Source: an uncultured bacterium
GTDB lineage: Bacteria; Patescibacteriota; Minisyncoccia; Phycocordibacterales; UBA6065
Reading direction: 5' to 3'
Length of the DNA: 64,000 nt
Assembly (NCBI GenBank): GCA_966243015.1
Contig: CBIMES010000001.1
Location: 426,076 to 490,075, forward strand
Shown here: in pieces, positions 4,545 to 43,647 of the stretch
How positions within the stretch are numbered: position 1 is the first letter of the stretch
How the letters are laid out: the number at the start of each line of letters is the position of its first letter
Notes under the pieces: generated by a model
What the model saw: only the letters and a program-made list of their open reading frames with translations
Databases searched by the model: none
What the model was told of the DNA's origin: nothing
Translations under genes and position numbers: made by a program

Positions 4545-5495
4545 CTACGCAAGCTTATTGAAGACACGGAGCTTCTCCTCGACGACGCGCTGCATGGCAG
4601 AAACCGTCGGCCTGAGAAGCTTATACGGAGCAACCTCGTCGGGGGTCGCGGTGACGGACGCCTTGAGCGCATCGCGGAACGCCACGCGAAGCTCGGTATT
4701 CACGTGAATGATGGCGACGCCCGCGTCGATAGCGGCGCGGAAATCGTCGGCAGAATTGCCGGACCCTCCGTGAAGGACGAGCGGAAGGCCAGTCGCCTCA
4801 GAAATCTCCCTGATGCGAGCGATATTAAGAGCCGGGTCAACGCCACCCTTGAGCATGCCATGGATGTTGCCGACCGCCGGCGCAAGCATGTCTACGCCCG
4901 TCGCCTCGGCAAAGCGCTTCGCCTCGTCAGGCTTGGTGAGGAACTCCTCGGAAATCTTCACGCCCTCGGGAATACCGTCAAGAACCTTTGACGACTTGCC
5001 GATGAAGCCGATTTCGGCCTCGACCATGATGTCACGGCCCTCGGCCCTGGCGCTGGAACGAACGTAGTCGACGCACTTTTTCGTGGCCGCCACGTTGTCG
5101 TCGAAATTCTGCTCGGTGCCGTCATAGATGCACGCGTCGTAGCCCGCGTCGACAACCTCCTTCACGCGATCAAATGAATAGGTGTGATCTGCGTTGATGA
5201 AAACAGGTTGGCCCGTCTCGGCGCGATAGCTTTCGACGAGCGCCTTCGCCTGAGCGACCCCAACGAAGTCTCGCTCGCCCTCTGACACGCCGATAATGAC
5301 CGGAATCTCTCGCCCTGACTCCTTGGACACGACCTCGGCAGCCTTCACCACCGCCCAGAAACCCTCGATGTTTGAGATATTGAAGTGGCCGATGGCGACC
5401 TTGCGAGCGAGGGCATCGTTTACGAGCGATCGCAGCGAAGGACCCTTTGAGGCTGACATCGCCGCGGACTTCCCTCCCTTGAAAAATTTGAACAT
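4545..5495 (-). CDS. fba: Fructose-bisphosphate aldolase, class II
   Basis: Class II FBA motifs (HFNISNIEG, DHTYSFD, LHGGSG). Start trimmed to MFKFFKGG (ATG at 5495), which sits after a terminator hairpin and an AT-rich promoter region. Confidence 0.9.
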   Translation of the reverse strand: MFKFFKGGKSAAMSASKGPSLRSLVNDALARKVAIGHFNISNIEGFWAVVKAAEVVSKESGREIPVIIGVSEGERDFVGVAQAKALVESYRAETGQPVFINADHTYSFDRVKEVVDAGYDACIYDGTEQNFDDNVAATKKCVDYVRSSARAEGRDIMVEAEIGFIGKSSKVLDGIPEGVKISEEFLTKPDEAKRFAEATGVDMLAPAVGNIHGMLKGGVDPALNIARIREISEATGLPLVLHGGSGNSADDFRAAIDAGVAIIHVNTELRVAFRDALKASVTATPDEVAPYKLLRPTVSAMQRVVEEKLRVFNKLA

Positions 5496-38219: not shown

Positions 38220-38248
38220 AGTATAGGTGAACTCTCGTTCACCTGCAA
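38220..38248 (-). promoter_or_regulatory. SOS promoter: -35 TTGCAG (38243-38248), LexA/Cheo box GTGAACGAGAGTTCAC (38227-38242) in the 17-nt spacer, -10 TATACT (38220-38225)
   Basis: Minus-strand reading shows a GAAC-N4-GTTC perfect palindrome exactly between consensus-like -35 and -10 hexamers. Confidence 0.75.
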
Positions 38249-39171: not shown

Positions 39172-39394
39172 CGCGGGAGAGCTTCTTAATGCGAGCCTCC
39201 TCGACCGAGGCTGACGACCTGTCGGGAAAGGCCCTCGAGTACACGAGCCTCACCGGGCGACGGCTGCGGGTGTATTTTGCGCCCCTTGATCCAGGGGCGG
39301 CAGAGTTGTGCTCCTCCACCCTGCGGGCGAGGTCGGTCGTGATGCCCGTGTAGAGGGTGTTGTCGGAACAGAGGAGGATGTAGAGGTGGTACAT
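39146..39394 (-). CDS. GIY-YIG nuclease family protein (82 aa)
   Basis: YHLYILLCSDNTLYTGITTDLARRVEEH matches the GIY-YIG catalytic module. The ATG overlaps the DUF2075 stop codon (TAATG). Confidence 0.85.
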   Translation of the reverse strand: MYHLYILLCSDNTLYTGITTDLARRVEEHNSAAPGSRGAKYTRSRRPVRLVYSRAFPDRSSASVEEARIKKLSRDEKLALAR

Positions 39395-41364
39395 TAAATT
39401 TCCTTAAACCCAATACTTTTTAAGTAACCGTAGGTTTCGTCGTAAAATTCTGGGCTACGTGTCGAATCATTCGCATCTCCGTTGGGCACAACAATAACCA
39501 TGCCCTGTCGTGCACGAGTTAGCAAAACACGATAGGCGTTTTTCTGATATGTCTGCCTCTCTTCTTTTTTAATATTCTGCCATCTACTGCCAACAAAGGA
39601 ATAATGACCCCATGCATCTCCCGTATACCTAAAGTCCCCATCCCAAACCACACAAGACCAGTCGAGCTCAAGACCCTGAATGTCAAACTCAGTAGCAACA
39701 TCCTCCATGTAGTACGACGAACGAACATCGTCCTTTCCATCCAAAAACCAGTGAACCGGATCAACCGTTGACTTAACGAATATGGCATGCGGCCGTAGAC
39801 GCTCCGCCTGAGATGAGACGATCATCCCGTAACGCTCGCTTCCACGCGCATGTGTTTTAATCCAATCCTTTGCCATCTTAATGTCACGAGTGATTACTAT
39901 TGGATACTTTTCGTGTAACCCCTCCAAAGTTTTGCTTGCTTGCAACGGCCTTATATCAAGAACCTCTTTTACCAATTTAGAGACATTTTCAGCACGAAAA
40001 GAACGCATCGAAACCGCAAGGTGCAATTCGTCAATGAAATGAACATTTTTTTGGTTTTTAATTTTCTCAATAATTTCACCGCTACCGTATTCCGAGTCAG
40101 TGAGGCGTGGCGAAACATATATTTCCCATTCAGGGAAGGATCCATTGAGGCAATTTATCCATTCTTTTATACCTCCCTCACCCGTATGAATCTCCTGTCC
40201 GCCGCCGACAAGGCACACAACGGTCGCCCAATCATTGTGCCTATCCATACACGAAATAAGAAATTCTGGCTCTGAAAGATTAAAATCTTGCTGCCCTTTT
40301 TTCCTTCGCATGAAATCGACCGTCTGCTTTTTATCCCAAGCACGTTGCGCCTCATCAAAAAGTGCCACGTGCTCAATTGGCGCTTTCTGCCCCCGAAGAC
40401 AATCGTCTCTAAAGTGGTGAACGTTTTGGATAAACAAACTAACTTCACGAATTGCGTCTTTTTTTGTAAATCTATTTCCTTTTTCCTTTTCCCTTGCGAC
40501 ACGATCTCGCGCCAAAGCCTCTCGTAGAATCGAAACAAGAGGACCGTTCCCCGAAAGATACACGCTATATAAATCACTGTCCTTATCAAGGTGTTTTTGA
40601 GCCACATCAAGTCCGACAAGCGTCTTGCCCGCACCGGGAACACCGGTCACAAAACAAATCGATTTACGCCCATTTTTCTTAGAATCAGCTATAACGCCTG
40701 AAACACGAGCAACGGTGTTTTTGAGATTTATGGCACCCGCATCTGAACGAGAGATACTTTCAACTGCATGTCCGCGATAAAGCGACATTGCAGCTTCTAC
40801 AATCGTAGGTGTTGGGCTATATATGCCGTCTTCCCACTTACGTTGGTTTATTTTCCCTGAGTCAACAAATTTTTCGAGCAGAGAAAAAATATCTTTCACA
40901 CCCTCGGCATTGACAGCAATGGGCTGAAAAACCTTATCTTCTTGCTTCGAAAATTGAGGGGTTACGATAGTTTGTTTTGCCTCTGTTGCAACAAGAACAG
41001 GGGCAATGTATATATCATGGCTAGTGCTGTGAAAATTTTTGAGATCCAGGGCATAATCCCAGACTTGATCAAGTGCATATGAGGCATATGCCGATTCGCC
41101 CACCTTAAACTCAATAACGTATAAAGTGTTCCCGGTAATAACCACGGCGTCTATACGCCTTCCCATTCGGGGAATTGAGTATTCGAAATAAATAGCACCG
41201 TCCTTATTTTTTAACGCTTCCTTCAATAACCTGATCTGTGCAATCCACGTGTCTCGTTGGGCTTTGATCACATCAAAATCACTGCTTGCGGTGATCTTGC
41301 CAAGGACAGTATCGACGTCTTCACCTAGAAACGATTGTATCGTATTTGAGTAAAAGTGATTCAC
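39394..41364 (-). CDS. DUF2075 (Schlafen-like) nuclease-helicase: N-terminal PD-(D/E)xK-like module and P-loop SF1-like ATPase
   Basis: N-terminal RIDAVVITGNTLYVIEFKV (D...ExK), Walker A GVPGAGKT, C-terminal YRVLLTRARQGMVIVVP typical of the DUF2075 end. GC about 42% against a 60% background. Confidence 0.85.
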   Translation of the reverse strand: MNHFYSNTIQSFLGEDVDTVLGKITASSDFDVIKAQRDTWIAQIRLLKEALKNKDGAIYFEYSIPRMGRRIDAVVITGNTLYVIEFKVGESAYASYALDQVWDYALDLKNFHSTSHDIYIAPVLVATEAKQTIVTPQFSKQEDKVFQPIAVNAEGVKDIFSLLEKFVDSGKINQRKWEDGIYSPTPTIVEAAMSLYRGHAVESISRSDAGAINLKNTVARVSGVIADSKKNGRKSICFVTGVPGAGKTLVGLDVAQKHLDKDSDLYSVYLSGNGPLVSILREALARDRVAREKEKGNRFTKKDAIREVSLFIQNVHHFRDDCLRGQKAPIEHVALFDEAQRAWDKKQTVDFMRRKKGQQDFNLSEPEFLISCMDRHNDWATVVCLVGGGQEIHTGEGGIKEWINCLNGSFPEWEIYVSPRLTDSEYGSGEIIEKIKNQKNVHFIDELHLAVSMRSFRAENVSKLVKEVLDIRPLQASKTLEGLHEKYPIVITRDIKMAKDWIKTHARGSERYGMIVSSQAERLRPHAIFVKSTVDPVHWFLDGKDDVRSSYYMEDVATEFDIQGLELDWSCVVWDGDFRYTGDAWGHYSFVGSRWQNIKKEERQTYQKNAYRVLLTRARQGMVIVVPNGDANDSTRSPEFYDETYGYLKSIGFKEI

Positions 41365-41447
41365 GGCTTTTTTGTGGTTGTTGTTTAGGTATTATATTTA
41401 TACTAACACCCAACATACCTGAAAATCTCTTAGATTTCACACAAAAT

Positions 41448-41912
41448 TCACTTCGCGAGCCTGAATCTTCCGGTAATATTCCATGGTAGTCTTTTAAGAT
41501 TTTTCCTCTTAATATCATGCTCCCAAATCACCACCGTCTTCCACCCCTCCCTCTTAAGCGCCCTGAGATTTTTTCGATCCCTCGCCCTATTGCCCAATAT
41601 CTTATGTGACCAAAACTCGGTGTTAGTCTTGGGCATTCCCTTGGTACACTTCCTGCACCCGTGCCAGAAACAGCCGTTGATAATGATGGCAATCTTTCGC
41701 CCAGGAAAGGCGATGTCGGGCTTACCGGGGGCCTTCTTCCAGTGAAGTCGGTAGCCGCGAATGCCGAGCGAAGACAAATGCTTGCGCACGATAAGCTCAG
41801 GCTTCGTATTCTTGGACTTGTTAGCGAGCATCACGTTCCTCACCGCGATGCTTGTCGAAACGGGAGTCGGCGGACGTTTCGCAGGCTTCTTTTTTGATAA
41901 TTTCCTTATCAT
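41448..41912 (-). CDS. vsr: Very-short-patch-repair endonuclease (Vsr-like)
   Basis: KPDIAFPGRKIAIIINGCFWHGC and later WEHD match the Vsr family. No DNA m5C methyltransferase gene is adjacent. Confidence 0.85.
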   Translation of the reverse strand: MIRKLSKKKPAKRPPTPVSTSIAVRNVMLANKSKNTKPELIVRKHLSSLGIRGYRLHWKKAPGKPDIAFPGRKIAIIINGCFWHGCRKCTKGMPKTNTEFWSHKILGNRARDRKNLRALKREGWKTVVIWEHDIKRKNLKRLPWNITGRFRLAK

Positions 41913-41933
41913 TTGTTGATAAAGAATTTATCA
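41895..41933. promoter_or_regulatory. Operator-like array: two TGATAA-N5-TTATCA palindromes (41895-41911 and 41917-41933). The four hexamers are phased 11 bp apart and overlap the vsr RBS and start codon.
   Basis: Read directly. Hexamers at 41895, 41906, 41917 and 41928. Confidence 0.6.
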
Positions 41934-41966
41934 CGTTTTAAGAACTAAATGTAACCGCCCCAGAGG

Positions 41967-42317: not shown

Positions 42318-42412
42318 GGTTGGTTTGCGTTACATCTAATCTGTCCTAAAAGGATAATAAAAAGAAGGTAAAGTTTTGGTAAAGAAACCGATGCCCTCCC
42401 TATCACACAACA

Positions 42413-42443
42413 AAAAGAAAGGCTCAGTCCACTGAGCCTTTCT
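42413..42443 (-). terminator. Terminator aaaaagaaaGGCTCAGTCCACTGAGCCtttctc (copy 3 of the hairpin family, CC-loop variant) downstream of the NYN gene
   Basis: Read directly. It is 30 nt identical to the copy at 43211-43243. Confidence 0.75.
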
Positions 42444-42611
42444 CAAAATCAACCCCTCGGCAAGGGGTAAAACGGATGTTTACTTTTGACCAAAATTATA
42501 TATACTCATGATATCTTCTGGTTTATTCATTTTGACCAGAAGGGCACTACATCCAAGGGCGGCCCTCCGAAAGGAGGGCCGCTTTGTATGTGTGCTCACT
42601 TGTTTCCCTTA

Positions 42612-43184
42612 CTAAACCGAGGCCCTCCGCTCAAGATCCCTTCCCCATATATCACCCTCTATAAGAAGAACGTCATAATACCCATCAGACCCTGTACGGA
42701 GCTCTTGGGATACATTGTTTCTCGAGGAGAATACACAGGCCTTCTTTCCCCTGCTTCTCACATAGGTGATAAGGGCGAGGAAATCTGAGTCTCCGGTAAA
42801 GAACACGGCCGTATCGTATACCGAGACGTTGTGCACGACATCGATGGTAATTTCGACATCCATATTGCCCTTCTCCTTGATCAAATCTCCTTGGGCGCCC
42901 TGCACGGGTATTCGCTTGAGCTCTTTCTTGACGACCGTAAAGCCAAGCCCTTTCTTGAGGTACGTGTAAAAACGATGCTTGCCGTCGAGATCATAATCCC
43001 GGGTCCCTTTCGCGGGATAGGCCGTATAGTAAAACACCTTGAGCTCAGTTGCCGAAAATTCACGGACGAGAAAGGCCCTGAGCTTCTCATAGTCAAACAT
43101 CTTGCCGCGTGCCTTCTGGGCCTGCCAGAGATTGCTCGCGTCGATGAAAACATAAACACGGTTGTTTTGCGGTAAGTCGACCAT
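42612..43184 (-). CDS. NYN-domain (LabA-like, PIN-fold) nuclease family protein
   Basis: VYVFIDASNLW and TGDSDF motifs of the NYN/LabA family. Confidence 0.85.
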   Translation of the reverse strand: MVDLPQNNRVYVFIDASNLWQAQKARGKMFDYEKLRAFLVREFSATELKVFYYTAYPAKGTRDYDLDGKHRFYTYLKKGLGFTVVKKELKRIPVQGAQGDLIKEKGNMDVEITIDVVHNVSVYDTAVFFTGDSDFLALITYVRSRGKKACVFSSRNNVSQELRTGSDGYYDVLLIEGDIWGRDLERRASV

Positions 43185-43266: not shown

Positions 43267-43647
43267 CTAGCGCACCGCCCTGTACGTCACGCCCCTTCCC
43301 TTGTCGCCGTGGCGGACGAGCAGACCCTCGGCCTCAAGCTCGTGCAGGTACCGCGTGGCCGTCGCGTCAGAGACGCCGAGAGCCCGCTCTACGTCGTTGT
43401 TCGCGATCTCCTCGCTCTCGTACGCGAGGTCGAGCACGTCCTGGAGATGCTTCTGCCTGCGGGCCTGGATCGGCGTGAAGTGGTCGAGATTGCCCCGCTC
43501 CTCGTGCCTGTGCCAGAAGAGGAGGAAGAAGACGGTGAGGACCGCGAAGAAGAGCGCGAGCATCGGGTCGATGAAGGCGACAACGAGGACGAATCCCGCC
43601 ATGAGGGTGCCAATCGTCTTTTTTGAGATCTCTATGTCCATGCCCAC
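43267..43647 (-). CDS. Membrane-anchored winged-HTH protein (paralog B)
   Basis: Two TM helices and C-terminal DVERALGVSDATATRYLHELEAEGLLVRHGDKGRGVTYRAV, which aligns with paralog A. Confidence 0.6.
   Translation of the reverse strand: MGMDIEISKKTIGTLMAGFVLVVAFIDPMLALFFAVLTVFFLLFWHRHEERGNLDHFTPIQARRQKHLQDVLDLAYESEEIANNDVERALGVSDATATRYLHELEAEGLLVRHGDKGRGVTYRAVR

Follow-up and report, generated by a model that had tools for sequence, protein, structure and literature searches.

A palindromic array at the start of vsr

The 64,000-nucleotide (nt) stretch analysed here, hereafter the window, comes from contig CBIMES010000001.1 (forward-strand positions 426,076 to 490,075) of an uncultured Patescibacteriota bacterium (GCA_966243015.1) and carries a gene for a very-short-patch repair endonuclease, vsr, whose 5' end lies within a hyphenated palindrome of 39 base pairs (bp) made of four TGATAA/TTATCA hexamers. 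A search with the encoded protein returned 1951 Vsr homologues, the closest named relative coming from a Candidatus Paceibacterota metagenome-assembled genome, and an identical Vsr is present on 13 metagenomic contigs. Directly upstream of the array is the gene of a small protein with a membrane anchor and a winged helix-turn-helix (wHTH) domain, here called wHTH-1, and the local genes are all on the minus strand (Table 1). The array probably exerts negative control on vsr in cis, as a repressor site or as an RNA hairpin that hides the start codon, two possibilities which the present data cannot tell apart.

Read on the plus strand, the array and its borders run TTTTT-TGATAA-TTTCC-TTATCA-TTTGT-TGATAA-AGAAT-TTATCA-CG, and on the coding strand cg-TGATAA-ATTCT-TTATCA-ACAA-ATG-ATA-AGG-AAA-TTA-TCA-AAA. 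The hexamers start at a constant step of 11 bp and form two perfect 17-bp dyads, TGATAA-N5-TTATCA, with 5 bp between them, such that successive half-sites are centred 11 bp apart and the two dyads 22 bp apart. A preliminary description of this DNA, made by a model from the letters, had given these hexamer positions, the 11-bp spacing and the two-palindrome architecture, and had placed one palindrome over the first six codons of vsr (ATG at 41912) and the other where its ribosome-binding site would be expected; reading the sequence confirms all of this.

Exact TGATAA-N5-TTATCA 17-mers occur in the 64-kb window only as the two units of the array, which also holds 4 of the 16 TGATAA copies. The preliminary description had proposed scanning the genome for further sites; carried out on the window, the scan found no other exact dyad, none with at most one mismatch, and two with at most two mismatches, which is the level expected by chance. 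In a more general test, any hexamer X was allowed in the arrangement X-Nk-rc(X)-Nj-X-Nk-rc(X), rc being the reverse complement, with k from 0 to 10 and j from 0 to 12. The window gave a single match, the vsr array, and 200 block-wise dinucleotide shuffles gave none. The array is thus a real, non-random and statistically exceptional feature.

Numbered along the coding strand, hexamers 1 and 2 make up unit 1, upstream of the gene, and hexamers 3 and 4 make up unit 2, which spans +2 to +18 relative to the vsr ATG and in codons 2–6 reads ATA AGG AAA TTA TCA (I R K L S). No Shine-Dalgarno sequence is present across the unit 1 region (TTCTTTATCAACAAATG). Two of the four hexamers have explanations of their own, since hexamer 1 fits an extended −10 element (TGnTAnnnT) and hexamer 3 is the coding sequence ATG ATA A. 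The remaining puzzle is why hexamers 2 and 4 should be perfect complements with precisely the offsets required.

Table 1. Features at the vsr locus. Positions are those of the window; signed offsets are relative to the vsr ATG; aa, amino acids; L006 and L007, related lineages described in the text.
Feature	Position	Strand	Basis or remark
39-bp hyphenated palindrome, four TGATAA/TTATCA hexamers	41895–41933	−	sequence, statistics, folding
TGATAA hexamer	41895–41900	read on +	
TTATCA hexamer	41906–41911	read on +	
TGATAA hexamer	41917–41922	read on +	
TTATCA hexamer	41928–41933	read on +	
Unit 1, TGATAA-ATTCT-TTATCA, −21 to −5, ribosome-binding-site position	41917–41933	−	sequence and comparison
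Unit 2, TGATAA-GGAAA-TTATCA, TG of ATG and codons 2–6	41895–41911	−	sequence and comparison
ACAAA, 5 nt at the centre of the array (spacer, or loop of the hairpin), with the A of the vsr ATG at 41912	41912–41916	−	sequence and folding
Putative extended −10-like motif TGaTAAATT within unit 1 (pattern TGnTAnnnT)	41925–41933	−	putative, from sequence
Alternative −10-like hexamer TACATT, −41 to −36	41948–41953	−	sequence; compare TACATT in L007, −40 to −35
vsr, very-short-patch repair endonuclease	41448–41912	−	PF03852, E 7e-22; ATG 41912–41910
wHTH-1, 116 aa, N-terminal transmembrane helix, linker, C-terminal winged helix	41967–42317	−	HTH_IclR, E 8.5e-6
Promoter-like site of wHTH-1, TTTACC-18-TATTAT	42354–42383	−	sequence; conserved with L006
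NYN-domain protein	42612–43184	−	
126-aa protein, transmembrane helix and wHTH, paralogue of wHTH-1	43267–43647	−	
DUF2075/Schlafen-type helicase, 656 aa	39394–41364	−	
Other local genes: GIY-YIG, YgjP-like, cupin, 69-aa open reading frame, lexA		−	

Comparison with related lineages

Only four lineages were found with a Vsr more than 60% identical to that of the window, namely L006 (78%), L008 (71%), L012 (69%) and L007 (68%). A scan of GTDB genomes with Vsr returned only one close relative, the same contig as L008, the other matches being to Atopobiaceae, Flavobacteriales and others. TGATAA-like words in 22-bp phase are common to the window, L006 and L007, the latter two having TGATAA-like left half-sites at −43, −21 and +1. 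In L006 the words are TGATAA-AGTCT-TTCTAA at −43, TGGTAA-ATTCT-ATATCA at −21 and TGATAA-AGAAA-ACCGTA at +2; in L007 they are TGATAC-ATTCT-TCATAA at −43, TGATAA-AAATC-TCATGA at −21 and TGTTAA at +2. On the short contigs of both lineages, the dyad pattern with up to two mismatches occurs only ahead of vsr, and no such dyads are present at the vsr starts of L008 and L012. Unit 1 is partly conserved in L006, where its counterpart also stands at −21, and the intergenic stretch around it is the same in the window and L006 at 28 of 34 nt, the sequence farther upstream being unalignable. L007 has two imperfect units, and unit 1 of the window is closest to the one at −43. Conservation in orthologous loci, on which the preliminary description had let its reading depend, does not extend to the four-hexamer array as such, since even the relative with 78% identity has lost hexamer 4, and two lineages have no array. 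Strain variants all carry the identical array and are uninformative on constraint.

In each of the five lineages, with or without dyads, vsr is preceded by the pattern TGnTAnnnT (window, cgTGaTAAATT; L006, taTGgTAAATT at −21 and tcTGaTAAAGT at −43; L007, tgTGaTACATT at −43; L008, tgTGcTAGAGT at −43; L012, taTGcTAGGCT at −43), and unit 1 of the window therefore overlaps a likely promoter. The window, L006 and L008 all keep hexamer 3 within conserved codons (M-I-R/K-K), the L008 counterpart reading ATGATAAGGAAACGC and having no hexamer 4. Hexamer 4 lies inside an eight-codon N-terminal extension common to the window and L006 only (MIRKLSKK... at 41889–41912 and MIKKTVRK... at 5001–5030, respectively), the proteins of L007, L008 and L012 starting MLKKRIPTPV and MIRKRIKTPV. 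The extension may have arisen by a shift of the start codon one 22-bp repeat unit upstream or by insertion of 24 nt after codon 4.

These repeats also allow for a reading without dedicated function, in which the array is the by-product of a tandemly repeated 22-bp promoter region, hexamers 1 and 3 stemming from an extended −10 (its TG/TA) and from the codons ATG ATA A, respectively, and hexamers 2 and 4 being the result of duplication or of template-switch correction of a quasi-palindrome. Consistent with this, 22-bp units with 13–16 of 22 identities precede vsr two or three times in the window, L006 and L007, the two hexamers concerned are each independently explained, no other lineage has the perfect array, and the TTATCA at hexamer 4 is specific to the window's species, L006 having ACCGTA there within the shared extension; the strain variants, identical as they are, hold no information on constraint. 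We nevertheless consider this quite unlikely. By our own estimate, two exact complements at the right offsets would arise by chance with a probability of about 1e-4 even with variable spacers, the generic array class did not appear in any of the 200 shuffles, and the stretch around unit 1 is well kept between the window and L006, unlike the unalignable sequence upstream of it.

Two further observations concern L012 and L008. In L012, three GATAAA direct repeats 11 bp apart (4867–4894) lie in an A-rich stretch just upstream of the extended −10 of vsr, and a weaker version is present in L008; the repeats are possibly phased A-tracts that act as curved DNA or as a UP-like element. The called start of the Vsr protein of L012 and L013 (127 amino acids) is probably 19 codons too short, as an in-frame upstream ATG in L012 (4944–5000) restores the conserved N-terminus MKSKRIQTPSASSPAVRNVML.

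A candidate operator and its candidate regulator

The pattern in the window itself, that is four identical half-sites, equal spacers, phasing by 11 and 22 bp, overlap with both a −10-like motif and the ATG, and a wHTH gene next door, is best explained by a repressor operator. Half-sites of dyad symmetry about one helical turn apart, overlapping TGaTAAATT and the start codon, are found here as in the operators of dimeric wHTH proteins. Since the centres of the two adjacent 17-bp dyads are 22 bp, or about two helical turns, apart, cooperative binding of two helix-turn-helix repressor dimers to one face of the double helix would be possible. With unit 1 over the extended −10-like motif and the predicted transcription start, and unit 2 over the start codon and first codons, an occupied operator would occlude RNA polymerase or block early elongation and would thereby keep Vsr low. 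We tentatively posit that the array is a two-dyad repressor operator with the adjacent membrane-anchored wHTH protein as its candidate binder, a reading of the sequence that we regard as possible rather than probable, though likelier than any of the others considered. The preliminary description had likewise seen the geometry of a cooperative repressor site and had concluded that vsr is tightly repressed. Its geometry holds, in that the in-phase 6-5-6 dyads are non-random and sit over a −10-like element and the start codon; its conclusion is weakened by an RNA hairpin that explains the site about equally well (see below).

The candidate repressor is encoded by the gene directly upstream and would combine an N-terminal membrane anchor with a winged helix of ArsR/MarR/IclR type. 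In its structural model (predicted local distance difference test score, pLDDT, 70) a helix at residues 4–38, which is the transmembrane segment, is followed by a disordered linker, a long helix at 48–68 and a canonical winged helix, the wHTH domain as a whole spanning 48–115. The best PDB matches are the repressors CadC, ArsR, SqrR, SmtB, CzrA, NolR, MarR and IclR, with template modelling (TM) scores of 0.35–0.46 that are weak because of the transmembrane helix. A search for homologues of wHTH-1 returned only its own 99% variant, and the only orthologue detected, in L006 (51% identity), likewise lies just upstream of vsr, the 126-residue paralogue type being present in all lineages. The dyads are perfect in the window and score 5/6 plus 5/6 in L006, both of which have the gene; they are degenerate in L007, where it was not seen, and L008 and L012 lack both the dyads and a wHTH-1 gene in this place. 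That dyad quality tracks the presence of wHTH-1 is only suggestive across these five related lineages. The proposal in the preliminary description that the upstream gene could encode the cognate regulator gains from the membrane-anchored winged helix with an ArsR/SmtB-, MarR- and IclR-like model and from a sole orthologue that accompanies a good upstream dyad in L006.

The promoter region of wHTH-1 contains direct repeats TTTACC-N5-TTTACC, 11 bp apart (42367–42383, minus strand), with equivalents TTTATG/TTTATC/TTTACC in L006 (4260–4290). Such phased TTTAYC repeats could be a second site for wHTH-1, but a single pair is not significant (12 of 200 shuffles). A 14-nt stretch of the same region, TTCTTTAYCAAAAC, is similar to the right half of vsr unit 1 (TTCTTTATCAACAA).

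A possible RNA hairpin over the start codon

As RNA, the same 39 nt would fold into a single long stem-loop with the vsr start codon hidden in it, making for low translation with no dedicated protein. The preliminary description overlooked this single hairpin, which buries the AUG and makes an RNA-level explanation about as good as the operator. The whole 39 nt fold as a single hairpin of −13.8 kcal/mol, with 16 pairs, 17-nt arms and the loop ACAAA, the AUG standing at the junction of loop and 3' arm, and the two small alternative hairpins reach only −3.1 and −3.6 kcal/mol. Pairing between the spacers ATTCT and GGAAA is possible at four of five positions (three Watson-Crick pairs and one G-U), and vsr has no Shine-Dalgarno sequence, such that its initiation depends on an accessible AUG.

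Among 50 gene starts of the five lineages (−45 to +25), the vsr start of L007 ranked first for structure (z = −4.2), that of the window third (−3.7) and that of L006 fourth (−2.9), and the signal persisted in shuffles that keep the purine/pyrimidine segmentation (z = −4.2 in the window, −2.7 in L006 and −3.4 in L007). The structure around the initiation codon is therefore more stable than composition would lead one to expect in the window and also, significantly, in L006 and L007, where the start codon is still held in a long stem despite divergence of the hexamers. The cross-lineage features, namely an AUG-holding stem that outlasts the hexamers, complementary spacers and the lack of a Shine-Dalgarno sequence, are best explained by the RNA model.

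The conserved features themselves are less specific. Columns homologous between the lineages contain no compensatory double substitutions (RNAalifold, double changes in 0 of 10 consensus pairs), the stems of L006 and L007 are in different registers, and sense and antisense strands do not differ consistently in stability (−14.6 versus −13.9, −12.2 versus −9.6 and −13.5 versus −14.3 kcal/mol). Given different registers, no covariation and equal folding of the strands, the conserved property is a long inverted repeat across the vsr start, which fits a DNA palindrome and an RNA hairpin equally. Furthermore, a hairpin requires neither that hexamer 1 equal hexamer 3 nor that the loop be as long as the spacers, structure is unremarkable at the vsr starts of L008 and L012, and no Rfam family covers the array, the only matches (42376–42552) being below gathering scores. 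We regard the hairpin as a real possibility, though a somewhat doubtful one.

A more specific variant of the RNA model is a fold-back device of the kind known from insertion sequences IS10 and IS200, for which fold-back inhibition of IS10 is a precedent. Transcripts reading through from the wHTH-1 gene would hold both arms and be translationally silent, whereas those started from the extended −10 within the 5' arm would lack that arm and leave the AUG exposed. The co-directional gene upstream has no terminator before vsr and has a promoter-like site of its own, hence read-through into the palindrome is likely and the resulting transcripts would hold the entire hairpin; the −10-like motif inside the 5' arm also suits this variant. 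If instead TACATT, farther upstream, were the promoter in use, the whole hairpin would be inside vsr's own transcript, these two motifs being the candidate −10 elements in the sequence. A stem-loop that occludes the ribosome-binding site has been reported for IS200 (PMC3196728), and a low level of Vsr is advantageous (PMC2715241). The parallel with the elements that protect IS10 and IS200 from read-through extends to a 3' arm with the start codon, a 5' arm over the gene's putative −10 and a co-directional upstream gene without a terminator. The vsr locus differs from them in that the gene concerned does not encode a transposase, covariation gives no support and the vsr transcription start is predicted from sequence; moreover, the arms of the vsr hairpin are themselves palindromic, which RNA elements of this type do not need to be.

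Weighing operator and hairpin

Several observations weigh against a repressor operator. Two of the four hexamers are otherwise explained, by the promoter TG/TA and by the codons ATG ATA A, and the mutual complementarity of the spacers is needed by a hairpin and not by a simple operator. Only the window's species has all four hexamers in perfect form, hexamer 4 being ACCGTA even in L006, and the dyads of L007 are poor (3/6 and 4/6 symmetric positions), this lineage combining strong inverted repeats and degenerate units with no wHTH-1 in its 5-kb contig. As to the protein, the window and L006 versions of wHTH-1 have different residues at several positions of their recognition helices though the dyads differ little, the promoter of wHTH-1 itself has no matching dyad, and a membrane anchor is unusual in a repressor. 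In addition, we know of no transcriptional repressor of vsr in any organism.

The operator and hairpin models are not mutually exclusive, and in both the element exerts negative control on Vsr. Such control would be in keeping with the properties of the enzyme, as Vsr must stay scarce because an excess disturbs mismatch repair by MutL/MutH and causes mutations in Escherichia coli (PMC2715241). The array is a compact 39-bp element, readable either as an operator or as a translation-blocking hairpin, in an uncultivated bacterium with a small genome from a group with almost no characterised regulatory sites. The practical significance is modest, since this is one species-specific palindromic element of a familiar kind at the vsr 5' end, for which repression is a plausible reading of the sequence.

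A stronger version of the operator reading would make a membrane-tethered, ArsR/MarR-like winged-helix protein of the Candidate Phyla Radiation (CPR; Paceibacterota) the dedicated dimer-of-dimers repressor of Vsr, coupling an envelope or membrane signal to its expression. We consider this unlikely as a whole. If true, the membrane-tethered repressor would be, to our knowledge, the first transcriptional regulator described for vsr and, with its operator, one of very few characterised regulator-operator pairs in CPR bacteria, and the signal would act on a mutagenic repair nuclease, the anchor of a variable slot of anti-phage genes.

Comparison with known regulatory systems

It is very improbable that the array is the site of a known global regulator or system, i.e. 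a Fur box, a LexA/SOS box or the C-box of a restriction-modification (R-M) controller, although each shares something with it. The half-site core TGATAA is also the core of the Fur 7-1-7 box, two dyads over about 35–40 bp resemble C-box operators, and lexA lies 4 kb from vsr, itself a repair gene. Spacing, box sequence and gene context largely refute all three, including the two analogies, to Fur-like GATAAT arrays and to R-M C-boxes, that the preliminary description had drawn. Fur boxes are 7-1-7 inverted repeats (TGATAATnATTATCA) or are given in a 19-bp form (GATAATGATAATCATTATC). The TGATAA/TTATCA arms of the vsr array are 5 bp apart as against 3 bp in TGATAATnATTATCA, that is 2 bp too far, and read as 7-mers the array is 7-3-7 (TGATAAT/CTTATCA and TGATAAA/TTTATCA); the 64 kb contain no other such site, and vsr is not related to iron. 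The SOS box of this genome is GGTGAAC-GAGA-GTTCACC (GAAC-N4-GTTC), and the array contains neither GAAC nor GTTC. C-boxes, whose consensus is of GACT...AGTC type, share with the array a position just before a nuclease-related gene and what would be the tight control of a potentially harmful enzyme, but a small Xre-type C gene, boxes of GACT/AGTC type and a neighbouring methyltransferase/endonuclease pair are all lacking at the vsr locus, and the site stands before vsr itself.

Tandem palindromic operators of dimeric winged-helix repressors of MarR, ArsR/SmtB and IclR type also resemble the array. They too have inverted half-sites 5 bp apart, as in the two GTTGA-N5-TCAAC sites bound by MexR, with paired sites over a promoter or start, an adjacent winged-helix gene and a local, single-target role. 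By comparison, wHTH-1 is predicted to have an N-terminal membrane anchor and none of their ligand or dimerisation domains, and the array is not conserved together with wHTH-1 beyond one relative. An intrinsic terminator for the upstream gene is unlikely, the stem being followed on the sense strand by an A-run and not a U-run. A dif/Xer site, a DnaA box and an integration host factor (IHF) site, judged by eye, were ruled out on spacing or mismatches.

Similar patterns elsewhere

A metagenome scan for the exact four-hexamer pattern gave 30 matches, none of them from the window's species. These were rejected as relatives of the vsr site, being simple 22-bp tandem repeats with spacers nearly identical within an array. 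Many consist of head-to-tail TGATAA-N5-TTATCA-N5 units of 22 bp, 3 to more than 6 per array, for example TGATAAGCCTATTATCAATGTG repeated, on contigs with a GC content of about 0.5 (L125, L127, L130, L131, L133, L136–L138, L142, L144 and L145) or about 0.4 (L126, L134, L139, L140, L146, L151 and L152). They are intergenic, lying between housekeeping genes, namely those for UvrC and a rhamnosidase, a nucleotidyl (NTP) transferase and MatE, SecA and a phosphodiesterase, or peptidase S49 and a cargo protein of the type IX secretion system (T9SS), and one flanking gene has a T9SS sorting domain, typical of Bacteroidota. These arrays are an intergenic family of tandem palindromes unrelated to the window's organism. 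A third group, with a GC content of 0.31–0.37 (L124, L128, L129, L132, L135, L141, L143, L147–L149 and L153), has CTGATAAGRNYCTTATCAG-type arrays adjoining a conserved 'ttatttcattatc' motif and repeated 'catccggatag' words, and appears to resemble the subterminal repeats of a mobile element. A scan of viral contigs for three of the hexamers returned 30 matches, every one in AT-rich DNA and mostly in coding sequence, at GC contents of 0.21–0.47 (most at or below 0.37) and none with a fourth hexamer, which we treated as chance.

Gene context of vsr

The preliminary description had treated vsr and the downstream DUF2075 gene as one repressed unit, an arrangement that is not conserved. In four other contexts, homologues of the DUF2075 protein (70–73% identity) are encoded on their own, in no case behind vsr, and lack TGATAA arrays, which also led us to reject an operator travelling with this gene. 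In the window, DUF2075 has its own perfect TATAAT (41391–41396) in the 83-nt gap, 26 nt ahead of its GTG start. Its product is a full-length match to PDC-S41, a candidate defence protein in PADLOC (E 6.6e-285). Comparison of the slot after vsr (39394–41447 in the window, 5444–7100 in L008 and 5388–6810 in L012) revealed a 318-residue protein and an HNH protein in L008, and a 160-residue protein and a McrB_N/NucS_C protein in L012. The flanks are syntenic, the window and L008 continuing with the same genes (GIY-YIG, YgjP-like, cupin and lexA). In this Paceibacterota lineage vsr thus looks like the conserved anchor of a variable defence slot, a small defence-gene hotspot, which is supported by the GC contrast between DUF2075 (0.44) and the whole window (0.58). 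The array, if regulatory, accordingly concerns vsr.

Elsewhere at the locus, two consecutive terminator-like hairpins, one with a 13-bp stem and a T-run, follow the NYN gene (42415–42468, minus strand) and overlap a sub-threshold Rfam match to L20_leader (28.7 bits against a gathering score of 58.7) that is probably due to chance. The perfect palindrome GGTGAAC-GAGA-GTTCACC quoted above lies at 38226–38243 (minus strand), upstream of the 69-residue open reading frame that precedes lexA; its form suggests a LexA box of the Gram-positive type and a putatively autoregulated two-gene lexA operon.

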